Source: Escherichia coli 042 (GTDB lineage: Bacteria > Pseudomonadota > Gammaproteobacteria > Enterobacterales > Enterobacteriaceae). From it: a stretch of 64,000 nt of DNA. Within the stretch, counting starts at the first letter, position 1, and the number at the start of each line of letters is the position of its first letter. Positions 34,098 through 63,100 of this stretch are shown in pieces. The stretch lies in assembly GCF_000027125.1 (NCBI RefSeq), contig NC_017626.1; one strand, 5' to 3'. The position numbers were made by a program, and so were the translations under genes. The notes beneath the pieces were generated by a model. That model was given only the letters and a program-made list of their open reading frames with translations. It made no database searches and was not told where the DNA came from.

Positions 34098-34553
34098 GGG
34101 AGTTCTACCGCAGGGGCGGGGAACTCCAAGTGATGTCCATCATCGCATCCAGTGCGTCCGGTTTATCCCCGCTGACGCGGGGAACACACATGAATGTCGG
34201 TTCAGACCGTGTTTTTACCCGGTTTATCCCCGCTGGCGCGGGGAACACTCGTCGGCGTCTTCACCCGTCGCATAACGCTGCGGTTTATCCCCGCTGGCGC
34301 GGGGAACACTGCCAGCGTGTCGGCGTGCGTTTCGCGCTGCCCGGTTTATCCCCGCTGACGCGGGGAACACTCGATCGATAGCTGCGCGATACCTGCGGGG
34401 ATCGGTTTATCCCCGCTGACGCGGGGAACACGGCAGCTATCGAGGCAGTTATCGAGCGTCGCGCGGTTTATCCCCGCTGACGCGGGGAACACCAAAGGAC
34501 ACCGGGAGGCACCCGGCACCGCAGCGGTTTATCCCCGCTGACGCGGGGAACAC
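34098..34553 (-). CRISPR. type I-E CRISPR array: 8 repeats (the iap-proximal one degenerate), 7 spacers of 32 nt
   Basis: 29-nt repeat cggtttatccccgctg(a/g)cgcggggaacac at 34159, 34220, 34281, 34342, 34403, 34464, 34525; degenerate copy at 34098..34126; 61-nt period. Confidence 0.95.
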
Positions 34554-34649
34554 ACTAAGCATACATAACTGTTTTTAAAAAAATTTATTCCGCATCAACA
34601 ATCTACCAACTAAATTAAAACATTTCCTTATTTTTAAAGAACAGATAAC
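34554..34649 (-). promoter_or_regulatory. CRISPR leader (AT-rich, contains conserved motif acaatctaccaact)
   Basis: AT-rich non-coding segment between last repeat and cas2; motif at 34599..34612 recurs at the same distance in the second leader. Confidence 0.8.
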
Positions 34650-35859
<1,210 letters not shown>

Positions 35860-35863
<4 letters not shown>

Positions 35864-36510
35864 GCCTCTGCTCCGGGTTTGATCAGCATCAGACCACAGC
35901 CGAACGCGCGGCTTTTGCCATACCCCTGGCTCAGACGTTGCAGAAATAACCCAGGATCGGTGACCGTAAGCATCCCCGTATAATCCACGCTACAGAACTG
36001 GATCAGTTGCCGGGAGTTTTCCCGCCGCAGTTGCTGTTGTCGGTAGGCATCGACCGAGGTATCCAGTAGTGTAAAACCGCTTCTTTCCCCCTGCGCTGCC
36101 AGCCAGTCCAGCGCCGCCTGTTGTTGATGCAACCAGACATCACGCCCTTCCGCCTGCCCCCTCACCTGCCGTTTCGCCTCTATCAGCAGATCGTGGCGCT
36201 TACCCGCTTTACAGACTGTTGGATTCGCCCGCAGGTTGAAACAAAGGGATTGTCCGGTACGCAGCTCCGGCGCAAATGACCGGCATTCGATGGTGAACGT
36301 ATCACTTTCCGCCGGGCGTTCCTGCGACAGGACAAAAAAGCGAAACGCGCCCTGGAGTTCTTCCCGACGATAAAGAAATTGCCTTTCTTTGCCACCCGGG
36401 AAAAGATCCCACAGCCACTGATGCATCACATATTCACCGCGATCCACCAGATGCAGCAACTGCGCAGGCGAAAGCTGGCCGGTATGTAAGGTTATTCTTG
36501 AGAGGTACAT
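35860..36510 (-). CDS. casE: CRISPR pre-crRNA endoribonuclease Cas6e (CasE)
   Basis: Likely start MYLSRITLHTGQ (track ORF 35860..36648 is an upstream extension); C-terminal G-rich loop GYGKSRAFGCGLM. Confidence 0.88.
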
Positions 36511-37238
36511 GGTTCCTCCTTGCTGAGCCACGGCCCCTGATTGACGGTGCGTTCCCCAAACAGCCACTGCTGGCGATTTAAAGGAACATCCCGGCGGCGC
36601 AATATTTTGCTCGCGACCAGGCCGTCGTGCTCCCCTTCCCACCAGCATTCATCCTGAAGTTTCGGGAGTGAGACTTTCAGTTCGTGGAAACGATCCTGAT
36701 ACTGTTGGTATGCGTTACGTAAGACATCAGACGCGTTGCCTTCGAGCAGTAACGGCGCAAGTGGTAACGCCAGCGGATGACTTTTTCGCCCCAGATAAAG
36801 CGGAAAAACCGGATGACGTAAATCTTCCTGCAACTGTTCGAGGCTGTAAGGCGCATCGGGGGTTGTTGCCACCGCCACCATCCACCAGGCGTCGGTGTAA
36901 TAGTCGCGCCGGGAGATAATCGCGCTTAGCAGTTCAAGATTACTCAACTCTTCGCGACGGCTGAAATAACGCGCTTTACGCACCTCTTTTGGCATCTGGA
37001 CCGTGTGATAATCCCGTGCCCAGCGCGGGTTACGGCTGGCGCAAACCACCAGTGAATAGTGGCGATTAAACGCGTTTAAGCGTTCGGTATCATCACGCCG
37101 AATCCCTACCCCGGCAGCCAGCAGCCCCAGCAATGCTGAGCGCGAAGGCAGTTCATGGGTATGACGCACTTCACCGGGGGCATCGACGCCCCAGGATGCC
37201 ATCGGCCCATGAAGCTGAAAAATTAGATATTGGCTCAT
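36492..37238 (-). CDS. casD: Cascade subunit Cas5e (CasD)
   Basis: 248 aa; N-terminal MSQYLIFQLHGPMASWG typical of Cas5. Confidence 0.88.
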   Translation of the reverse strand: MSQYLIFQLHGPMASWGVDAPGEVRHTHELPSRSALLGLLAAGVGIRRDDTERLNAFNRHYSLVVCASRNPRWARDYHTVQMPKEVRKARYFSRREELSNLELLSAIISRRDYYTDAWWMVAVATTPDAPYSLEQLQEDLRHPVFPLYLGRKSHPLALPLAPLLLEGNASDVLRNAYQQYQDRFHELKVSLPKLQDECWWEGEHDGLVASKILRRRDVPLNRQQWLFGERTVNQGPWLSKEEPCTSQE

Positions 37239-37248
37239 AAGCCGCCCC

Positions 37249-38304
37249 TTACGCGCAGATAAAGTCCAGCACGTCCTTCATGCTTCCCTGTTTGTTCATC
37301 ACGTCAAAACTTGTGTAATCGGTCTTCTGTTCGTAAACCTTATTCATGTTTTCGCGAAGCGTCGTAATACGCTGCACCGCTTCATCTAACTGCCCGGTGC
37401 CGTTAATGGGTTCATAAAAAGCCGCCGCCAGAGAGCGCGGTTGTTCGATACCTTTTTCTGCCATCGCCCAGGAGGCGTAGGCACGACTGGCAAAGCTGTT
37501 TTGTTTACCGGTTGGGGAAACTTTAAACGCGGCTTCCGTAAAGGCGCGCAGGGTCTGATTAGCCAACGCTTCGTCTCCGCCGAGGTTTTCTACCAACAGA
37601 TCTTTATCAATGCAGATATAGGTGTAGAAAAGTGCTGAACCGAATCCGGTTTCACCAAGATGCCCGGCACCGGCATCTTCAGAAGCCTGGCGCAAATCAT
37701 CAACGGCGGTGAAAAAATCATCTTCGACAATCGTTTCACTGACACCAAACGCATGCGCAACCTGGCAGGCGGCTTCAACATTAAACTCGGGTTTATTCGC
37801 CAGCATACGACCAAACATAGCGATATCTACCGCCATGCGATCTTTACGTAACAAAGCGAGATCTTCCTCTTTTGGCGCGCGCTTTTCTTCGGCCAGTTGA
37901 TGGGCCAGCGCTTTTACGGCGTCAAATTCTGCCGGGCTGATATGGACTAGCTGTTCAGTTTCGGCGTTAGTGAGCGGATCTTTTGGTTTTTTGTCGTTTT
38001 TAGCTTTCCCAAGATAATCCGCAATTTTTGCCGCCCATTCGATGGCTTTTTTCTCTTCGATGCCTTTCTCAATCAGGATAGTTGCCGCCTCACGCGCAAT
38101 ACGCCCACTGCGAATACCAATATGGCCCGCCAGTGCCTGTTCAAAATGTGCAGAAGTGCGCCACGCACGTTTCAGACTTTGTGAGGAAACGCGCAGACGC
38201 GTTGCTCCACCCAGTACCACAGTTTTTGGCGCACCGGTGTCATCACGGTTAAGGTTGGCAGCAGGGTAAGCGGTTAACAAATGAAGCTGAATAAATGTCG
38301 TCAT
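37249..38304 (-). CDS. casC: Cascade backbone subunit Cas7e (CasC)
   Basis: 351 aa; MTTFIQLHLLTAYPAANLNRDDTG typical Cas7e N-terminus. Confidence 0.92.
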   Translation of the reverse strand: MTTFIQLHLLTAYPAANLNRDDTGAPKTVVLGGATRLRVSSQSLKRAWRTSAHFEQALAGHIGIRSGRIAREAATILIEKGIEEKKAIEWAAKIADYLGKAKNDKKPKDPLTNAETEQLVHISPAEFDAVKALAHQLAEEKRAPKEEDLALLRKDRMAVDIAMFGRMLANKPEFNVEAACQVAHAFGVSETIVEDDFFTAVDDLRQASEDAGAGHLGETGFGSALFYTYICIDKDLLVENLGGDEALANQTLRAFTEAAFKVSPTGKQNSFASRAYASWAMAEKGIEQPRSLAAAFYEPINGTGQLDEAVQRITTLRENMNKVYEQKTDYTSFDVMNKQGSMKDVLDFICA

Positions 38305-38318
38305 GAGATAGTCCTTTA

Positions 38319-38855
38319 TTAATTTTGTTCGTTATCGGCGTCGCCAGCCTGGTAATATTCCAGCGCCCAGCGGATACGGATAAATTCTGTTGGCCGCTGC
38401 TGGCGGCGGTGATGATTGAGCAGATCGTCGCTCTCCTGGCACCAGCGGAAAATATCGTCTGCCAAAGAGATAAGATTGACGGAACCATTTAATAATTTGA
38501 CCGCGCGACGTAACTGGCGCAGTAATTCATCCGGCGTTTTGACTGCCGACAGGCGAGTAAAACGCCCCTCAGACATTACCGCCGCCAACTGCGCGGCAAA
38601 AAGCTGCCGTTCATCAATGGCTTTTACATTGGCGGCAACGGCGGCAACCAGCGCCAGTGCGGTAAAACGCCACTCCTGTGATTCAATTTTCCACAACGTG
38701 TGGGTCTGCATCAGCAGAGAACGAAACCCTTCTGACAGACAAACATCATTAACCGTTGTGCTACGCCGCAGACTGGCACGATTGCCTCGTTTTTCCTGCA
38801 ACTCTTCGTGCCATTTACGCAGCGTGGCTTTGTGCTCCTCTTTTACAATACTCAT
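38319..38855 (-). CDS. casB: Cascade small subunit Cse2 (CasB)
   Basis: 178 aa alpha-helical, Arg/Lys-rich ORF between cas7e and cse1. Confidence 0.85.
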   Translation of the reverse strand: MSIVKEEHKATLRKWHEELQEKRGNRASLRRSTTVNDVCLSEGFRSLLMQTHTLWKIESQEWRFTALALVAAVAANVKAIDERQLFAAQLAAVMSEGRFTRLSAVKTPDELLRQLRRAVKLLNGSVNLISLADDIFRWCQESDDLLNHHRRQQRPTEFIRIRWALEYYQAGDADNEQN

Positions 38856-40420
38856 TCAGCAGCCTCCTGCTTTTTCTCCCTGGCGGCTTTAGCACTTTGC
38901 TTCTCCGCCGATGTTGTAAAATATTTCTTGCGCGCGGTCATGACGCGTTTCAAATCAACGGGCTCATAAGGATTAGTGAATACACGCTCGTCAAAATCCT
39001 GACGCGCGAATAACCAAATTTCCTTTTGCCATTTGCCGAGTAATTCATCCGCATCCTGACCTTCTTCAATTTGGCGCACTAACCTCAGGAAGCGATGCTG
39101 AGTTTTGTTCCAGAAGTCGATATCCACAAAACTAAAATCACCCCGAGCACCTTTTGGATCGGAGAACCAGGCTTCTTTCAATGCACTCCGTAACAGACTT
39201 AGAATCCGTGAAGCCGTTTGCGCAACCAGCCGCAGCTTCGGTATCTGGCCTTCTTTTTTATTGAGCAGCAGCGGGAAATGGTGTTCGTACCAACAACGGG
39301 CTTTCATGTTGTCAAAATCATAACCAAATCCCCACAGGCCCACTTTTGTCTGCTTCAGACTGCTGGCATTAAAGAGTTTCACCACCAGCGCGGGAAGTTC
39401 CGTATTGTTTTCTGACTTACCCGTTTCGATAAGACCTAACCAGTCGCGCCAGATTAAACCGCCCGGTTGTGGTTTAACGGAGTAAAACTCACCGCCCTCT
39501 TTAAGTGGTACACGGTAAGGCGTTAAGGGATGCTGCCACATGGCATAATTCGCACCATAATTTTTGGTCGTCATCAGGCTCAGGAGCGAGTCATTCTGCT
39601 CGCCGCAAATATCGCAGTTGCCGACTGTCGTGGTATTAAAATCAATACGAATACGCCGCGGCATTCCCCAGTACGCCTGGAGTTTATTGACCTGATCATG
39701 GGTTACCACCGCACCGGCCAGTTCGCTGGTACGCGTCGGGCCAAGCCAGGGGAAAATCAGATCGTCAAATTTTTTGGGTAGCGGTAAGTCGGCTTCATCC
39801 TGCGGCATCACATTGAGCCACAGTTTGCGCCACAAGGGTGTTTGTTGATTGCCCTGATATTCCTGTAATTCAATCAGAGTGGTCATCGGCCCACCGCCGC
39901 GTAAACCGGTGCGATAGCCTTTGCCGCCTGACGGCGCATTTAACTGTAGGGAGAACAGAGCTAACGCAGAACAATGTGGGCACAGGTATTCCGTTACACC
40001 ACGCTTGATAAAGTGGTCTTTATTAAACTTCGTTGTTTGAGCGCCGGGAATCTCAGGCAGTAGCGAAGCGACCGGAATTTTATCTCCGGTGAGCGCCTCG
40101 AAATCCTGCATAAATGAAGGGGAATCTGGGCCAAACTGGAAAGCATGTTCTAAAGATAGCAATGCTTCCCGTAGCTTTTCAGCTTCCAGTCCGTCTTCCC
40201 AGATATCATCCCAACGACGATGATCTTTTGGCGCGAAGCTGGTTTGTAGTAGCCCCAGCAAAAACTGCCACGCCGCTCCCTGGAGATCTGCCCGCGGCGC
40301 AGCGATATCGACAACATTTTCATCCGCCAGATCGACTGGCGCCAGTTTGCCTGTTGTTCCGTCTTTAAAACGAACGGGCAACCACGGGGTTGTCAGAAGT
40401 GAAAACGAGTTCATACGCAT
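38852..40420 (-). CDS. casA: Cascade large subunit Cse1 (CasA)
   Basis: Track ORF 38852..40483 begins at TTG; first ATGs are 21-23 codons in (MRMNSFSLLTTPWLPV), giving about 522 aa. Confidence 0.85.
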   Translation of the reverse strand: MRMNSFSLLTTPWLPVRFKDGTTGKLAPVDLADENVVDIAAPRADLQGAAWQFLLGLLQTSFAPKDHRRWDDIWEDGLEAEKLREALLSLEHAFQFGPDSPSFMQDFEALTGDKIPVASLLPEIPGAQTTKFNKDHFIKRGVTEYLCPHCSALALFSLQLNAPSGGKGYRTGLRGGGPMTTLIELQEYQGNQQTPLWRKLWLNVMPQDEADLPLPKKFDDLIFPWLGPTRTSELAGAVVTHDQVNKLQAYWGMPRRIRIDFNTTTVGNCDICGEQNDSLLSLMTTKNYGANYAMWQHPLTPYRVPLKEGGEFYSVKPQPGGLIWRDWLGLIETGKSENNTELPALVVKLFNASSLKQTKVGLWGFGYDFDNMKARCWYEHHFPLLLNKKEGQIPKLRLVAQTASRILSLLRSALKEAWFSDPKGARGDFSFVDIDFWNKTQHRFLRLVRQIEEGQDADELLGKWQKEIWLFARQDFDERVFTNPYEPVDLKRVMTARKKYFTTSAEKQSAKAAREKKQEAAE

Positions 40421-40511
40421 CCTCTCGTAAAAAAGACCATCCCAGGTCGGTTGTCCATCATTCCATCCTTTTGGGTGTATCAACTATTCAGAGAGCCCTG
40501 TCGCAGGCATC

Positions 40512-43169
40512 TCAACCAACCTTGCCAGTCAATCCTTCCATAGCCGAATACCCGCAACTTTCGTCATCGGTGACTAAAATCACGTTTGCCATCTCCGGAT
40601 CTTGCCGCTGTTCAATGCACCACTGCCTGAACGCATCCCCTTCCAGTAAAGAAAACTCATCCCGATGTTTTTTCCACCAGCTTCGACGCACTCTGACAAC
40701 GCTCATTTCCCATGCGTGAGCACCGGTGGCATAAGGCTTCACCACACCGTCAATACAGGTAGCCAGCCACAGGGAAACAGATTCCTCAGCCAGACGTGTC
40801 GACAGCTTTTCCGGAAGGTAATCGTTGATATTGGCGGCATAGCCAGGCTTGAAGTTCAGGACAAACTTTTTAGCCATTGCGCGATCGCAGTAATATTTGC
40901 CCACTTGCTCCTGCTCACTGCGGGCAAATCCTTCCGGCATTGCCACGTCTTCACCGTAGACTGATTCAATAAGAAGCCGGGCTGCGTGTGGCATCTGAAT
41001 AGCGCCTTGCTCACGCAGCACACGCTGCGTCAGCCAGATTCGCCCATGATCGGGGTAGACATATGCACTGTTACGCATGGCGCTGCCAAACCATTCGTCA
41101 CCCGGAGAGTCATCCCAGACGGGAGCCAGAATCAGCAATTCAGGAGGGGAACGCTCATCTTTTCCGTCACGCTTTAACTGACCATTAATATCGCGGATAT
41201 GCCGCTGTAATCGCCCCGCCCGCTGGATTAGCAAATCAATGTGGGCCAGGTCGGAGATCATTTCGTCCAGGTCACAATCGACGCTCTGCTCTAATACCTG
41301 AGTACAAATAAGGACTTTTCCGGCACGCTGTGAGTTACCTTCTTTACCAAAGCGTGCCAGCGTTTCCGTTTCAATTCGCTGGCGATCGCTAAAAGCAAAG
41401 CGGCTATGAAAAAGTGAAAGGCTGGAAGCGGGAATGACGCCGCGGGCAAGCAGCTGACGATGAACCTTAATAGCGTCATCGACAGAATTCCGGATCCAGG
41501 CGATGCATTTCCCCTGACTTACCGCCGATTCGATATGTGCAATACATTCTTGTTCGCTATGAAGCCAACCCACACACACGTTGCGCTCAACTTCTTTGCG
41601 CGTCGCTACCCGGTGCGAATGCAAATCGGATTTCGTGACATGCGTCAGCCATGGGTAATCATCCTTTTCAAGGAACGGAGCTTCTTGTTGGCCCTCTGCA
41701 CCACGCGCAAAGGCAGCGACGAGTTTGTCGCGCTGCTGTTGAGATAACGTAGCAGAAAGCAAAATGATACTGTTTCCGCCACGCGCCTGCCGCTCAATCA
41801 ATCCTTCAAGAATGCACGACATGTAAGCGTCACAGGCATGGATCTCATCAGCCAGCAGGATTTTTTTACTCAACCCCAGAAGCCGCAGATTATTATGTTT
41901 GAACGGCATCACCGCCATCATCGCCTGATCCAAGGTGCCGACGCCAATTTCAGCCAGCAACGCCTTCTTGTTACTGTCGGCAAACCAGGCCGCACATCCC
42001 TGGCTGAACGCTTGTTCATCCGGTTCTTCTGACCCGACTAAATCACCGGACCAGAGTGATTCATTGAAGCGGTCCATTAATGTATGGGCACTGTGTGCCA
42101 GCACCAGGCTGGGGCGGGATTCTGGCGAATAGAAAGCAAGCCAGGTTTTGACCAGCCGATCGTACATGGCATTGGCCGTTGCCATTGTTGGCAGGCCAAA
42201 AAACAAACCCTGAGCTTTCCCCGCAGCCATCAACCTGTGGACCATGATAAGCGCTGCTTCTGTTTTACCTGCGCCAGTCACATCCTCCAGAATAAATAAC
42301 TGTGGCCCAGGCTGGCTGATATCCAGATCCAGTACCTTTTGCTGTAACGGTGTCGGGTGCTCAATAAAAGGAAACAGTGTATTAATTCCGGTGAAAGGCG
42401 CGGTTTGTGCTTTTGGAGGAAAGACGGTTAAGGCGTTTTGAGCCTGAACTAAAGCCTTCTGCCAGTAATCTTTAATATCCATTGCCTGTGCAACGCGTGG
42501 AAAAAACCGCGTTGACGATCCCGTCCAGTCTGCGAGTACGACGGTTGCAGAGATATACCAGGAAAGTTGTTTTATAAGTTCAACGCCCTCGTCATCATCC
42601 CAGAATGTGGGGATCTCGATGAGCGGGAACAGTGTCTTGATTGCAAGGAGAAAATCTCGTGCGGCAGCTTTGTCTTCAGGCAGAAAATTATCCAGTTCAT
42701 CCATACGATCAGGAGGCTGACCATGATGCCCGGTAGTCATGGGCATCCACATCTCTATTACCCGTTTAAGTTTGCGGGGAGAGAGTGAAGATGAAGGAAG
42801 CAACTCTTCACATTCAATTAAATAATGATTCCACAACCAGTAGCCCAGCGTTGAATGAGAGATCTTTTCGTAATTTTTTCTTGCACTTTCCGGAACCTTG
42901 AGCTGTGGGTGCAGGTAAAGTTGCTGAAAAGAGCGGGCAAATTTTCCAGTATCGTGCCAACACAGCAACCAGGCGAAAAATTGTGCTGCCTGCTCCGTGT
43001 CAGCGATACCTAATTGACGAAAATAGTCAGCCAACCCGAAACAGTTGTTTTTGACCATTAAATAACCCGTCGCGGCTACATCCAGCGAATGCCAGCAAAG
43101 TAGATGATAGTCGTCGCCGCCCTCTTTCTCGCCACGTCGGGTTTTTCCCCAGAAATCAAAGAAAGTCAC
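40512..43169 (-). CDS. cas3: CRISPR-associated nuclease-helicase Cas3 (HD domain + SF2 helicase)
   Basis: 885 aa; N-terminal HD motifs (LCWHSLDV, HDTGK), Walker A GAGKT, DEAH-like LADEIH. Confidence 0.95.
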   Translation of the reverse strand: MTFFDFWGKTRRGEKEGGDDYHLLCWHSLDVAATGYLMVKNNCFGLADYFRQLGIADTEQAAQFFAWLLCWHDTGKFARSFQQLYLHPQLKVPESARKNYEKISHSTLGYWLWNHYLIECEELLPSSSLSPRKLKRVIEMWMPMTTGHHGQPPDRMDELDNFLPEDKAAARDFLLAIKTLFPLIEIPTFWDDDEGVELIKQLSWYISATVVLADWTGSSTRFFPRVAQAMDIKDYWQKALVQAQNALTVFPPKAQTAPFTGINTLFPFIEHPTPLQQKVLDLDISQPGPQLFILEDVTGAGKTEAALIMVHRLMAAGKAQGLFFGLPTMATANAMYDRLVKTWLAFYSPESRPSLVLAHSAHTLMDRFNESLWSGDLVGSEEPDEQAFSQGCAAWFADSNKKALLAEIGVGTLDQAMMAVMPFKHNNLRLLGLSKKILLADEIHACDAYMSCILEGLIERQARGGNSIILLSATLSQQQRDKLVAAFARGAEGQQEAPFLEKDDYPWLTHVTKSDLHSHRVATRKEVERNVCVGWLHSEQECIAHIESAVSQGKCIAWIRNSVDDAIKVHRQLLARGVIPASSLSLFHSRFAFSDRQRIETETLARFGKEGNSQRAGKVLICTQVLEQSVDCDLDEMISDLAHIDLLIQRAGRLQRHIRDINGQLKRDGKDERSPPELLILAPVWDDSPGDEWFGSAMRNSAYVYPDHGRIWLTQRVLREQGAIQMPHAARLLIESVYGEDVAMPEGFARSEQEQVGKYYCDRAMAKKFVLNFKPGYAANINDYLPEKLSTRLAEESVSLWLATCIDGVVKPYATGAHAWEMSVVRVRRSWWKKHRDEFSLLEGDAFRQWCIEQRQDPEMANVILVTDDESCGYSAMEGLTGKVG

Positions 43170-43407: not shown

Positions 43408-43560
43408 TACTTCTTCGATTCGTAAGCGAGAACTGCCTTAAACTCCATACCACGTTCTCTGATACTCAACTCACACAACGAGTCGCCTACCATCAGCGTG
43501 AATCCCAGTACTGTACAACACAGTACGATGATTGCCACAAGGGCATATTTTGTCAGCATG
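43408..43560 (-). CDS. hok: Hok/Gef-family type I toxin (small membrane peptide)
   Basis: 50 aa [50 protein letters not shown]; matches Hok/Gef pattern (TM helix, SLCE, AYES); GGAGG 7 nt upstream of ATG; below the 60-aa track cutoff. Confidence 0.8.
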
Positions 43561-43769
43561 TCTTGCCTCCCTGCAAAGAAGAGACTAACATTCGAATTGC
43601 TTAGGTTCGAACGCTGGCCTCAGGTTGATTGAAATATCGCCTGGGGCTTTTGTCCATCTGGAACCTCGCGAATGCTTAACGCCAGACAGCCTCAAGCACC
43701 CAACGCCATTCTATACCTGTTAATTTTCCCTGCGATGTTCACCTTTAAATGCCGGAATGCTGCTCGCAA

Positions 43770-58141: not shown

Positions 58142-59620
58142 ATGTCGAAAAAATACATCATAGGGATTGATGGCGGAAGTCAGAGCACAAAAGTGGTGAT
58201 GTATGATCTGGAAGGTAATGTGGTTTGCGAAGGCAAAGACTTATTGCAGCCGATGCACACGCCAGATGCCGATACCGCAGAACATCCTGACGACGATTTA
58301 TGGGCATCATTATGTTTTGCCGGTCACGATTTGATGAGTCAGTTTGCCGGGAATAAAGAAGATATTGTCGGTATTGGTCTGGGCTCCATCCGTTGCTGCC
58401 GTGCGTTATTGAAAGCCGATGGCACGCCAGCTGCGCCGTTGATTAGCTGGCAGGATGCACGCGTTACACGCCCTTACGAACATACGAATCCTGACGTGGC
58501 ATATGTCACCTCTTTTTCAGGTTATCTGACGCATCGCTTAACCGGCGAGTTTAAAGACAATATCGCCAACTATTTTGGTCAGTGGCCGGTGGATTATAAG
58601 ACCTGGGCATGGAGTGAAGATGCCGCAGTCATGGAGAAGTTTAATATCCCCCGTCATATGCTGTTTGATGTGCAAATGCCTGGCACCGTCCTCGGACATA
58701 TCACACCACAAGCCGCACTGGCGACACATTTCCCGGCAGGACTGCCGGTTGTTTGTACCACCAGTGATAAACCGGTAGAAGCTCTGGGGGCCGGATTACT
58801 GGATAATGAAACTGCGGTAATTTCTCTTGGCACTTACATCGCATTGATGATGAACGGCAAAGCACTGCCGAAAGATCCGGTGGCGTACTGGCCAATTATG
58901 TCTTCTATTCCGCAAACATTGCTGTATGAAGGTTACGGTATCCGCAAAGGCATGTGGACAGTGAGCTGGCTGCGCGACATGTTAGGCGAGTCGTTAATTC
59001 AGGATGCCAAAGCACAGGATCTTTCACCGGAAGATTTACTCAACAAGAAAGCGTCTTGTGTGCCGCCTGGCTGTAATGGTCTGATGACGGTGCTGGACTG
59101 GCTGACCAATCCGTGGGAACCGTACAAACGCGGGATTATGATCGGCTTTGATTCCAGCATGGATTACGCATGGATATATCGTTCGATACTGGAAAGCGTG
59201 GCGCTGACGCTGAAGAACAATTACGACAATATGTGTAATGAAATGAATCACTTTGCAAAGCATGTGATCATTACTGGCGGTGGTTCGAACAGCGATCTGT
59301 TTATGCAGATTTTTGCCGACGTGTTCAACCTTCCGGCACGACGTAACGCCATTAATGGTTGTGCAAGTCTGGGGGCAGCGATTAATACGGCGGTAGGTCT
59401 GGGGCTATACCCGGATTACGCAACGGCTGTCGACAAAATGGTTCGCATGAAAGATATCTTTATGCCTGTTGAGAGCAACGCCAAACGCTACGACGCGATG
59501 AATAAAGGCATTTTCAAAGACCTAACCAAACACACTGATGTGATCCTGAAAAAATCGTATGAAGTGATGCATGGTGAGCTGGGGAATGAAGATTCGATCC
59601 AGAGCTGGTCGAATGCGTAA
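58142..59620 (+). CDS. ygcE: FGGY-family carbohydrate kinase
   Basis: 492 aa; N-terminal IIGIDGGSQSTK sugar-kinase motif. Confidence 0.9.
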   Translation: MSKKYIIGIDGGSQSTKVVMYDLEGNVVCEGKDLLQPMHTPDADTAEHPDDDLWASLCFAGHDLMSQFAGNKEDIVGIGLGSIRCCRALLKADGTPAAPLISWQDARVTRPYEHTNPDVAYVTSFSGYLTHRLTGEFKDNIANYFGQWPVDYKTWAWSEDAAVMEKFNIPRHMLFDVQMPGTVLGHITPQAALATHFPAGLPVVCTTSDKPVEALGAGLLDNETAVISLGTYIALMMNGKALPKDPVAYWPIMSSIPQTLLYEGYGIRKGMWTVSWLRDMLGESLIQDAKAQDLSPEDLLNKKASCVPPGCNGLMTVLDWLTNPWEPYKRGIMIGFDSSMDYAWIYRSILESVALTLKNNYDNMCNEMNHFAKHVIITGGGSNSDLFMQIFADVFNLPARRNAINGCASLGAAINTAVGLGLYPDYATAVDKMVRMKDIFMPVESNAKRYDAMNKGIFKDLTKHTDVILKKSYEVMHGELGNEDSIQSWSNA

Positions 59621-59666
59621 GTGAGGAAGACCGGGCGGGAAACTGCCCGGCCTGAACATACCTGAA

Positions 59667-59804
59667 TGGTTATCCCCGCTGACGCGGGGAACATAAGTTC
59701 GACAACTTAAAAAATGATAACAAGTCCGGTTTATCCCCGCTGATGCAGGGAACATAATAAAAACTTTAACTAGTTCGGTTTATCCCTGTTTTTACAAGGA
59801 ATAT
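59667..59804 (-). CRISPR. degenerate CRISPR remnant (3 decayed I-E repeats)
   Basis: tggttatccccgctgacgcggggaacat, cggtttatccccgctgatgcagggaacat, cggtttatccctgtttttacaaggaatat, separated by 32-nt and 20-nt spacers. Confidence 0.7.
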
Positions 59805-60257
59805 TAACTACACTCGATGTCTTTAGAATAAAAGACAATACGAATCGCACTTTATCAATTTTCACTTAAAGTATGAACTGGATATCTTTATTCATAAGAA
59901 CTATTCATCAACAGCGTATAGAGGCGATTATGTAAAATCACTCATTAGCCTCAAAACAAAGACAAATTTCCAGATTTATTACTTAATCAATGAATAATAA
60001 GCTTAAAAAATACACTGTTATTCTAAAGAAAAAATTAACAGGCATTAATTAATATTAAAAAAATAATATATTAAAATTTCTTAACGATTTAAGAATCATA
60101 CAAATAACACTTTGATTAAATTTAATTTTTTGTATCGATAATTGTGAACTTCTCTGGCATGGAGAACTATTTTGAACATGAGGTGTTACGTGGATATGTT
60201 GCTTATTACAAGTACTGCTAATATAAAAACTTGAGAAAGAGATAACGGGTTATATGG

Positions 60258-60408
60258 TGGTTTATCCCCGCTGGCGCGGGGAACTCTTGGCATAGGCGCT
60301 ATAGCGGCGCTCTGTGTCCGGTTTATCCCCGCTGACGTGGGGAACTCAAAGACAAATTTCTTTGTTCCTATGGCCAGACCGGTTTATCCCCGCTGGCGCG
60401 GGGAACTC
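60258..60408 (-). CRISPR. second type I-E CRISPR array: 3 repeats, 2 spacers of 32 nt
   Basis: Repeats at 60258, 60319, 60380 ((t/c)ggtttatccccgctg(g/a)cg(c/t)ggggaactc); 61-nt period. Confidence 0.9.
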
Positions 60409-60540
60409 TCTAAACATAACCTATTATTAATTAATGATTTTTTAAGCCAGTCACAATCTACCAACTTTACAGTATCACACAAACAACACATCCATTATGT
60501 TAAAGAGCATTTAATCCATTGATTAAAAAGATAAATATTT
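60409..60540 (-). promoter_or_regulatory. leader of the second CRISPR array
   Basis: AT-rich; motif acaatctaccaact at 60453..60466, 45 nt from the last repeat, matching the first leader (46 nt). Confidence 0.75.
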
Positions 60541-60746
60541 GAAATAACTCTATTCAAACTAAAATCTACCAAATTTCACCGCAATAATTTTCACTCCAAC
60601 GAAAAATTAACGCCATAAAATTTGTAGAGAATGATAATGATTAGTTCAGGATGGGCAAAATGGAGGTTTTTCAGAGGCGACAAAGAATATAAATGAGTAG
60701 AAGTCTTTACAGGTTCCACCCATTTATAACGCTTATAAATGTTTAA

Positions 60747-61418
60747 TCAGGCAATATTTAAATATTTATGCGTTTGCATCGACAAACGCCAGTTGCGCGC
60801 AATGCACGTATCGATACATAAACGAGTAGCATCATCCTTTTGGCTAATCGGCTGCAGTGCAATGACTCGCGGTTTATCATCGGTCAGTGTTGCCAGTAGT
60901 TCATCCAGTGCTTCAATATCACGTACGCGTCCCACTGGATGCTTGATTTCGTTGGCTCGCTCCAGTGCCTGTGACAACACTTCATAGCCGCCGCGCATGT
61001 TCAGCTTTGGCGATACGGTAACCCAGGTATTCGGTGTGCAGCGTACCTCATGAGTACCACTGGTTTCGATCTGGCAGCTAAAACCGTTCTTTTCGAGCAG
61101 GTCAGTCAGTGGCAGCAAATCATGAATGCAAGGCTCACCACCCGTAATCACCACATGCCGCGCGGTGTATCCCTGGCGACCAATGACAGCCAGCAAGTCT
61201 TCACTGCTCGCCGCCCCCCACTTATCACTCTCTTTGGTCTTCGCCAGAATGCTGAAAAGGGAGACTTCCCGATCCTCAAGCTTTTCCCAGGTGTGTTTGG
61301 TGTCGCACCAGGCACAGCCAACCGGGCATCCCTGTAAACGAATAAAAATGGCGGGGACGCCGGTAAAGTAACCCTCACCTTGCAGGGTCTGGAACATCTC
61401 GTTAATCGGGTACTGCAT
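60747..61418 (-). CDS. queE: 7-carboxy-7-deazaguanine synthase (radical SAM)
   Basis: 223 aa; CPVGCAWCDT radical-SAM cysteine motif. Confidence 0.93.
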   Translation of the reverse strand: MQYPINEMFQTLQGEGYFTGVPAIFIRLQGCPVGCAWCDTKHTWEKLEDREVSLFSILAKTKESDKWGAASSEDLLAVIGRQGYTARHVVITGGEPCIHDLLPLTDLLEKNGFSCQIETSGTHEVRCTPNTWVTVSPKLNMRGGYEVLSQALERANEIKHPVGRVRDIEALDELLATLTDDKPRVIALQPISQKDDATRLCIDTCIARNWRLSMQTHKYLNIA

Positions 61419-61590: not shown

Positions 61591-62193
61591 ATGCTCAGGA
61601 TATTCATCGTAATTATATTTATTGCCAATTTATCAGGCTGTGGATATAACGATATTCAAACCTATGATGAGCAGGTTAACGCCTCCTGGTCTGAGGTATT
61701 GAATCAATATCAACGTCGCGCCGATCTTATTCCTAATCTTGTCGCCAGTATTAAAGGTTATTCCAGCCATGAACAAGAGGTACTGGAAGCCGTAACATTG
61801 GCACGTAGCCAGGCTAATCGCGCCAGTAGCGATCTTCAGCAAGCTCCGGGAGATGCGCAAAAATTACAAGCCTGGCAACAAGCCCAGGCGCAGGTGTCTC
61901 GCACTCTCGGTCAGTTAACGATAATTAGTGAACGTTACCCTGATTTAAAAGCTCAGGAACTCTATCAAAATTTAATGGTACAGCTCGAAGGAAGTGAAAA
62001 TAGAATTGCCGTTGCGCGAGGAAGATATATTAAAGCCATTGAACAATATAATGTCACTATCCGCAAATTCCCCGCTGTATTAACCGCAAAGGTCATGGAT
62101 TACACACCGAAGAAAAATTATTTGCCGGATGACGTCGCAGCTGTGAGTAAAGCACCAATAATAGATTTTAGCCAGAATGCTAATGCGCATTAA
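61591..62193 (+). CDS. lemA: LemA-family lipoprotein
   Basis: 200 aa; lipobox LSGC; LemA-family similarity. Confidence 0.8.
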   Translation: MLRIFIVIIFIANLSGCGYNDIQTYDEQVNASWSEVLNQYQRRADLIPNLVASIKGYSSHEQEVLEAVTLARSQANRASSDLQQAPGDAQKLQAWQQAQAQVSRTLGQLTIISERYPDLKAQELYQNLMVQLEGSENRIAVARGRYIKAIEQYNVTIRKFPAVLTAKVMDYTPKKNYLPDDVAAVSKAPIIDFSQNANAH

Positions 62194-62206
62194 GCGGGGA
62201 AGTTAT

Positions 62207-63100
62207 ATGCGAAATTTTATCTTCCTTATGGCTTTCTTCTGTTCATCTGTGTTTGCCACACAAATTCCAGTACCTGAATCACCCAGGTATGTGAATGACT
62301 TAACCGGCACATTGACAAACAGTGAAGTAAACACCCTGACCAACCAGATTAAAGCCCTGACGCAAAAAAACAACGCACAGTTGGTCGTGTTAGTGGTTGA
62401 AACAACAGGCGATGAAACCATCGAGCAGTACGCAACGCGGGTATTCGATAGCTGGAAACCGGGTGATAAAGACCGCGATGATGGCGTTCTACTGTTAGTC
62501 GCCTGGCAGGATAATACCGTGCGTATTGAAATTGGTTACGGACTGGAAGGTATTATTACGGATGCGCAGTCCGGGAAAATTATTCGCAACAGTATTATTC
62601 CGGCATTTAAAAAAGGCGACCTGGCTGGCGGTTTACAAAAGGGGATCAGCGATATTGAAAGTCGTCTGACGGGGAATAATTTAGCAACGATAACACCGAC
62701 CGATTACCCTTTGCCCTTTAGTGGTTGGTGGGCTTTGTTAGTCTGGGCGATAGTACTGACGTTTATTTCTGCCAGAGGATATGTCAAAACACTGGGACTA
62801 ATTTGCTTCGCAGCTATTGTACTGGCCTTTGTTTTACCTATAGCAGGTTTCAGCGGAAGCTGGGGAGTGCTCGCAACATTACTCTGCTTCGCCACACCGT
62901 TCCTGGCTGTCGCCATCGCTTTTACTCCCTTCGGCAAAAAGGTTCGGGATTCGATGCGTAATACCAACCAGCCATCACGCCATACAAGAAACAATTCTTC
63001 CTCCCACTATTCGTCATCGTCATCCTCTTCATTCGACAATGACAATTTCCGCGGTGGTGGCGGTTCATCTGGTGGCGGTGGCGCTTCCGGGCGCTGGTAA
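62207..63100 (+). CDS. ygcG: TPM-domain membrane protein with Gly/Ser-rich C-terminal tail
   Basis: About 297 aa from MRNFIF; signal peptide, TPM domain, TM segments, tail SSSHYSSSSSSSFDNDNFRGGGGSSGGGGASGRW. Confidence 0.8.
   Translation: MRNFIFLMAFFCSSVFATQIPVPESPRYVNDLTGTLTNSEVNTLTNQIKALTQKNNAQLVVLVVETTGDETIEQYATRVFDSWKPGDKDRDDGVLLLVAWQDNTVRIEIGYGLEGIITDAQSGKIIRNSIIPAFKKGDLAGGLQKGISDIESRLTGNNLATITPTDYPLPFSGWWALLVWAIVLTFISARGYVKTLGLICFAAIVLAFVLPIAGFSGSWGVLATLLCFATPFLAVAIAFTPFGKKVRDSMRNTNQPSRHTRNNSSSHYSSSSSSSFDNDNFRGGGGSSGGGGASGRW

Follow-up and report, generated by a model that had tools for sequence, protein, structure and literature searches.

The intergenic region between ygcE and queE in the window (the whole 64-kb stretch of DNA that was analyzed) is almost certainly the published CRISPR-II locus of E. 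coli, made up of the array CRISPR2.2, a 0.5-kb AT-rich stretch, the array CRISPR2.3, and its leader, leader2.3. The locus, its two sub-arrays, the leader, and the role of a 14-nt motif that this leader shares with the cas-proximal one are all already known. CRISPR-II has been described as lying between ygcE and ygcF (queE), with CRISPR2.2 and CRISPR2.3 0.5 kb apart, a leader adjoining CRISPR2.3 only, and CRISPR-I some 24 kb away (PMC3903273, PMC3737337, PMC10910852); the locus names and layout are also found in PMC4489801. The organism is Escherichia coli: a 22-kb stretch of the window is 100.0% identical to strain CB6837, and the region was matched in 5408 of 5426 complete E. coli genomes, on the chromosome every time.

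The ygcE-queE intergenic region (59621-60746) contains six copies of a type I-E repeat, all in one orientation, three of them intact or nearly so and three degraded (Table 1). The sequence-only reading had proposed a three-repeat array at 60258-60408, about 25 kb from the cas genes, and the array is indeed there, separated by about 25.7 kb from the array and leader next to cas2 and by 17 kb from the distal end of cas3. The crRNA-sense strand of this second array is the minus strand, so that its leader occupies the side facing queE and the degraded repeats lie on the trailer side. The three decayed repeats and the 20-nt spacer described earlier are likewise present, but they begin at 59666 rather than 59667 and are not upstream of the array. 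For the same reason of minus-strand transcription, the repeat that had been called the last one, although rightly placed next to the leader, is actually the first, leader-proximal repeat. In those split-locus strains that were examined, the interval between the arrays varies little, from 502 to 504 nt (502 nt in the window versus 503 nt in K-12 when the two were compared). A search of the region against Rfam returned no CRISPR repeat family and no other RNA family, either at gathering scores or at E <= 1. Downstream of queE, at 61591-63100, a LemA-family gene is followed by TPM-domain genes at the place where K-12 has yqcG and ygcG; the right flank of the locus thus differs between lineages.

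Table 1. Features of the CRISPR-II locus and of the cas-proximal locus in the window; mismatches are counted against the repeat consensus CGGTTTATCCCCGCTGGCGCGGGGAACTC, and leader positions are numbered from the leader-repeat junction
Feature	Position	Strand	Remarks
CRISPR2.1, cas-proximal array	34098-34553	-	8 A-type repeats and 7 spacers
CRISPR2.1 leader (leader-A type)	34554-34649	-	motif at 34598-34611
Complete type I-E cas operon, O157-type variant	34650-43169	-	cas2, cas1, cas6e, cas5e, cas7e, cse2, cse1, cas3
ygcE	58142-59620	+	flanking gene
CRISPR2.2 terminal repeat R1	59666-59694	-	ATGGTTATCCCCGCTGACGCGGGGAACAT; 6 mismatches; 7-bp hairpin intact, -15.1 kcal/mol
CRISPR2.2 32-nt spacer	59695-59726	-	AAGTTCGACAACTTAAAAAATGATAACAAGTC; identical in K-12 and relatives
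CRISPR2.2 repeat R2	59727-59755	-	5 mismatches; hairpin kept via one G-U wobble, -12.1 kcal/mol
CRISPR2.2 short spacer	59756-59775	-	20 nt; repeat spacing 49 bp, not 61 bp
CRISPR2.2 repeat R3, most degraded	59776-59804	-	11 mismatches; 18/29 to consensus, first 11 nt identical
AT-rich stretch between arrays	59805-60257	no strand	453 nt, GC 17-31%
CRISPR2.3 trailer repeat	60258-60286	-	1 mismatch; TGG... at distal end; same variant at K-12 trailer end
CRISPR2.3 leader-distal "anchor" spacer (spacer 2)	60287-60318	-	TTGGCATAGGCGCTATAGCGGCGCTCTGTGTC; 32 nt
CRISPR2.3 middle repeat	60319-60347	-	CGGTTTATCCCCGCTGACGTGGGGAACTC; 2 mismatches (two substitutions)
CRISPR2.3 leader-proximal spacer (spacer 3)	60348-60379	-	AAAGACAAATTTCTTTGTTCCTATGGCCAGAC; 32 nt
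CRISPR2.3 leader-proximal repeat, predicted integration site	60380-60408	-	exact consensus, 0 mismatches
leader2.3	60409-60746	-	AT-rich, up to queE; 338 bp
IHF-binding region, leader -9 to -35	60417-60443	-	position taken from review PMC10011333
Upstream Cas1-Cas2 anchoring motif, -45 to -58	60453-60466	-	AGTTGGTAGATTGT (transcribed strand)
queE	60747-61418	-	flanking gene

CRISPR2.3 is a small type I-E array of three 29-nt repeats with a period of 61 and 61 bp and two 32-nt spacers that differ from each other. All three repeats match, over 29 nt, CGGTTTATCCCCGCTGRCGCGGGGAACWC, the repeat of the E. coli "CRISPR2" cluster. The two outer repeats are predicted to form the 7-bp stem and 4-nt loop of the Cas6e type (-15.1 kcal/mol), whereas the substitutions in the middle repeat break one pair of the Cas6e-hairpin stem and raise the predicted folding energy to -9.7 kcal/mol. 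The same middle-repeat variant is present in BEC1-S17 and ECA64, both of the relatives whose repeats were printed. The broken pair may impair cutting by Cas6e and might lower the yield of both crRNAs. For CRISPR-2 of K-12, transcription and crRNA processing are reported in the review PMC10011333; a simple promoter scan of the window missed the region published as the CRISPR-2 promoter.

When targets of the two CRISPR2.3 spacers were sought, none was found among 50,697 phage records, 72,556 plasmid records, and the 5426 E. coli genomes, and IMG/VR yielded no exact 24-mers for these spacers or for the CRISPR2.2 spacer. The matches that the CRISPR2.3 and CRISPR2.2 spacers gave in the plasmid collection were confined to chromosomes filed as plasmids and one chance match in Bacillus. 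We also noted an exact 14-nt identity, CAAAGACAAATTTC, between the inter-array DNA (59957-59970) and the point where the middle repeat meets the leader-end spacer (60347-60360), which shuffled sequences reach at a rate of about 0.014. It stops after 13 spacer bases and covers the PAM-distal end, and we regard it as probably due to chance.

Leader2.3 is AT-rich and carries both an IHF site and the upstream motif, with a core identical to that of K-12 and BL21. It matches the K-12 leader at 118 of 120 positions and the BL21 leader at 98 of the first 100. Positions -1 to -62 are nearly invariant in nine strains, the divergent strain E69 included, while the more distal part of the leader varies. 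The IHF region is the same in the window, K-12, and BL21, and matches the consensus WATCAANNNNTTR only with 2 mismatches. A perfect IHF consensus, AATCAATGGATTA, is found further upstream (60512-60524; leader2.3 -104 to -116) and is kept in 9/9 strains compared; it sits in a TTAATC/GATTAA palindrome and overlaps a possible -10 box, TTAAAT, which was read from the sequence and placed to fit the transcription start reported near -95.

As the sequence-only reading had noticed, the motif ACAATCTACCAACT occurs at the same distance from the repeats in both leaders. There are exactly two copies of it in the 64 kb, and each starts 44 nt past the leader-proximal repeat, which ends at 34553 in one array and at 60408 in the other. 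When up to 2 mismatches are allowed, 3 matches are obtained against 0.24 expected. The copy in leader2.3 is invariant in the nine strains. In an ungapped alignment, the two leaders agree at 14/14 positions within the motif, compared with 22/44 from there to the repeat and 9/42 on the far side; hence the motif is the only strongly conserved block between them. Yoganand et al. mapped in a K-12 leader a Cas1-Cas2 binding block, CBS2, at -46 to -57 and an integrase anchoring site (IAS) at -50 to -53 (PMC5224486); in the review PMC10011333, the IHF site is assigned to -9 to -35 and the contact upstream of it to -50 to -55. Since the motif spans the experimentally mapped CBS2 and IAS, it corresponds to a known functional element. 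A second copy with 2 mismatches is located at 60561-60574 (leader2.3 -153 to -166) and varies in 2 of the 9 strains.

In the account given in PMC3737337, Yosef et al. found the first 40-60 bp of the CRISPR2.3 leader to be needed for array expansion. The earlier suggestion that the leader is probably still recognized for adaptation gains support from the position of the motif over the mapped Cas1-Cas2 site and from the approximately 98% likeness of the leader to that of BL21. From the shared motif and from the natural arrays of strains with the same cas variant, we infer that the O157-type Cas1-Cas2 of the window would recognize leader2.3. One mismatched combination of leader and cas variants has been reported to give aberrant insertions (PMC3737337).

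The cas operon of the window encodes eight products, all of which score above the NCBIfam cut-offs. Its Cas1 is 99% identical to that of O157:H7 and 85% identical to that of K-12, and the CRISPR2.1 leader is near-identical to the O157:H7 leader, unlike the K-12 one. Just past cas3, at 43544-43701 on the minus strand, there is an RNA of the sok antitoxin family (Rfam RF01794, 109.6 bits). According to the literature, hok/sok is present in all CRISPR-I arrangements except that with the K-12-type cas variant, so a sok beyond cas3 fits an O157-type operon. The leader-end spacer of CRISPR2.1, CAAAGGACACCGGGAGGCACCCGGCACCGCAG (34493-34524), matches P1-like phage-plasmids at 32/32 positions, and the protospacer is followed by CTT, the canonical PAM. 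The query with this spacer gave 215 plasmid places in E. coli genomes; among the matches listed, all the plasmid ones were to it. Two neighboring CRISPR2.1 spacers, 34371-34402 and 34432-34463, have in common an 11-nt reverse-complement segment (TCGATAGCTGC and GCAGCTATCGA) and are internally repetitive; they may derive from overlapping or repeated parts of one target.

Work on near-identical leaders allows the operation of the locus to be proposed. Read on the minus strand from queE to ygcE, the order of elements is leader2.3, CRISPR2.3, 0.5 kb of AT-rich DNA, and CRISPR2.2. CRISPR2.3, having no cas genes of its own, would be served in trans by the type I-E operon 25 kb away. IHF would bind the leader at -9 to -35 and bend the DNA, and the bend would bring the motif at -45 to -58 against Cas1-Cas2 at the leader-repeat junction (60408/60409). 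New spacers would enter at that junction, with duplication of the first repeat. The array would be transcribed from a weak leader promoter, as has been reported, and Cas6e would cut each repeat hairpin to release two crRNAs for Cascade. The CRISPR2.3 of the window stands at the small end of its size range. The type I-E systems of E. coli are reported to be silenced by H-NS and to acquire spacers rarely (PMC3737337, PMC10910852).

The anchor spacer occurs in 44 of the 5426 genomes, at one place each, and all carriers inspected have it as the trailer-end spacer of CRISPR2.3; in 20 genomes it is accompanied by spacer 3. We compared the arrays of 13 genomes, writing spacers from the leader-distal to the leader-proximal end, so that the window reads [2,3]. 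Ecol_316 has [2,3,5]; ECA64, GF60, O17_K12a, and CB6837 have [2,3,5,4]; BEC1-S17 has [2,3,4]; KK19-02 has [2,5,4]; C4 has [2,3,12,13,14]; 2014C-3075 has [2,25,26,27]; N3 has [2,15-24]; MS69-1 has [2,28-39]; and VCSW7 has [2]. The pattern is that of a common trailer with differing, lineage-specific leader ends and an occasional internal loss. An array that was invariant among related genomes had been named as the finding that would speak against the earlier reading; CRISPR2.3 is not invariant, and it is the leader-end spacers that differ.

The comparison with CB6837 suggests in which direction the window has changed. Leader2.3 of CB6837 is 100% identical to that of the window, yet its CRISPR2.3 has two spacers more, and all four of its spacers are also found in more distant relatives. 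The window array is therefore most simply seen as shrunken, its two newest units probably having been lost when identical repeats recombined. CRISPR2.1 presents the opposite picture: the window has three leader-end spacers (34371-34524) that are missing from CB6837, and CH4796, Ecol_316, THO-008, and E01 carry some or all of the three. Together, the differences from CB6837 indicate that both arrays turn over between near-identical genomes, mostly by loss. Four other strains (A10, LSC52, 2021CK-01784, and CH4796) are 99.9% identical to the window over the cas-to-yqcE stretch, and have another ygcE allele and wholly different CRISPR2.3 spacers with an anchor of their own, which suggests that a recombination breakpoint lies immediately ahead of CRISPR-II.

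These losses bear on the strongest alternative, namely that array and leader, intact in sequence, are silent and no longer extended or used in nature, the relatives differing through deletion and recombination only. The change between the window and its closest genome is a loss and not a gain, as seen across the two arrays; internal losses have occurred in BEC1-S17, KK19-02, and strain 755; deletion-dominated diversity and very slow acquisition have been described for E. coli (PMC10910852); and the two CRISPR2.3 spacers had no targets in the phages, plasmids, E. coli genomes, and IMG/VR searched. However, the anchor spacer is followed, from lineage to lineage, by no fewer than five distinct spacer series, and a history of deletion only would need a single ordered ancestral array of about 38 spacers. 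The leader core from -1 to -62 is nearly invariant even in E69 while the distal leader is variable, and in CRISPR2.1 the spacer at the leader end matches P1 perfectly, with CTT as the PAM. On balance we consider a silent array unlikely, though it deserves some weight, and favor a leader2.3 that has kept its capacity to be recognized.

CRISPR2.2 agrees with its published description as three repeats and two invariable spacers beside ygcE, 0.5 kb from CRISPR2.3 and without a leader (PMC4489801): layout, invariance, and absence of a leader are all seen in the window. Of the 5426 complete genomes, 4048 carry its 32-nt spacer at 100% identity, as a rule in a single position each, and 3863 have the whole 151-nt stretch at >=99% identity. 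Searches of phages, plasmids, and the 5426 genomes gave this spacer neither a phage match nor a genuine plasmid match, and no second match in E. coli. In the divergent strain E69, R1 is followed by the 32-nt spacer with two substitutions and by an identical R3, without R2 and the 20-nt spacer; the identity of R3 in this strain means that its decay is old. A scan of species representatives with the exact CRISPR2.2 pattern, which misses diverged copies, returned one genome, E69. We looked for a decayed leader beside CRISPR2.2 and rejected it, as the in-register identity with leader2.3 equals that of shuffled controls (p 0.36-0.64) and 27% of shuffles do as well as or better than the best local alignment. 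A match between the inter-array DNA and leader2.3 around the motif, shifted by 2 nt, reaches 32/70 and is suggestive at most. We conclude that CRISPR2.2 is a non-growing relic, ancient and fixed in the species. Of the earlier description of an "older, eroded array," erosion stands, and "ancient and fixed" would be the better wording in place of "older."

Another possibility is that CRISPR2.2 was never a separate, older array and that it and CRISPR2.3 are halves of one array into which the 0.5 kb of AT-rich DNA was inserted. The two have the same orientation and repeat family, an AT-rich sequence has been described as splitting the CRISPR2 array (PMC10910852), and some strains have a single continuous array. 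Yet CRISPR2.3 has its own altered trailer repeat (TGG...), kept in K-12 and relatives, and the CRISPR2.2 repeats end in AACAT or AATAT, an ending not seen in CRISPR2.3. At the edges of the 0.5 kb there are no inverted ends, no duplications, and no remnants of a transposase. In S1-SRL-01-C, which has a single array, the first repeat is a hybrid that joins the body of CRISPR2.2 R1 to a CRISPR2.3 ending; this points to deletion of what lay in between by recombination between repeats, and speaks for two arrays as the earlier arrangement. A split array thus appears distinctly improbable, and we retain two arrays.

A third possibility is that CRISPR2.2 is still processed: were its repeats cut by Cas6e, read-through transcription could produce one fixed crRNA, with some non-immune role, in about three-quarters of E. 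coli genomes. Each of the three degraded repeats can be folded as a stem of 7 bp closed by a 4-nt loop, R3 still doing so at -7.9 kcal/mol by means of two double substitutions and one G-U pair; the 32-nt spacer shows the identity in 4048 genomes noted above; and a scan found no terminator-like site between CRISPR2.2 and CRISPR2.3. Selection for structure was nevertheless rejected as an explanation, since the pairing-preserving pattern of R3 has, by our own estimate, a chance of about 0.3 under simple GC-to-AT drift and is no evidence of function. We hold a processed, non-immune CRISPR2.2 to be very improbable indeed, given that the invariance of its spacer is ordinary within-species conservation, that the spacer has no second match in the E. 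coli genomes, phages, and plasmids searched, that R2 and the 20-nt spacer are absent in E69 and the whole remnant in S1-SRL-01-C, and that R3 has lost the conserved loop and the three terminal bases.

As a discovery the locus carries little weight; it has some practical value. Arrays so small tend to escape automatic annotation: RefSeq marks a CRISPR in relatives with at least five repeats, but most of those with three to four spacers lack the mark. Both arrays change between genomes that are 100% identical over 22 kb, and are useful for strain typing. The window also illustrates that a short array can be shrunken rather than young.

Three known systems come closest to what we observe. CRISPR-II of K-12 MG1655 resembles the window in its flanking genes, orientation, CRISPR2.2 repeats and 32-nt spacer, gap, and trailer repeat. 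It differs in that its CRISPR2.3 has 6 spacers compared with 2 in the window, none of them in common; in that its CRISPR2.3 repeats end in CAC, whereas those of the window end in CTC (T type); and in that its cas operon is the K-12 variant rather than the O157 variant. The array adjoining queE in BL21 is the homologous locus, with a leader that is 98% identical over the first 100 nt, including the IHF region and the upstream motif. Spacer-acquisition assays are reported to have used this array as their substrate (Yosef 2012, cited in PMC3737337; the region is given in PMC5224486). BL21 has 13 spacers and no cas genes, and in the assays K-12 Cas1-Cas2 was supplied from a plasmid, whereas the window has its own O157-type Cas1-Cas2. 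Finally, leader-A with CRISPR2.1 of O157:H7 (cas-EO variant) is of the same type as the cas-proximal leader of the window, the Cas1 proteins being 99% identical. Leader-A and leader2.3 have an identical 14-nt motif at the same offset and are about 50% identical in register outside it; leader-A is 96 bp long and abuts cas2, whereas leader2.3 extends over 338 bp.
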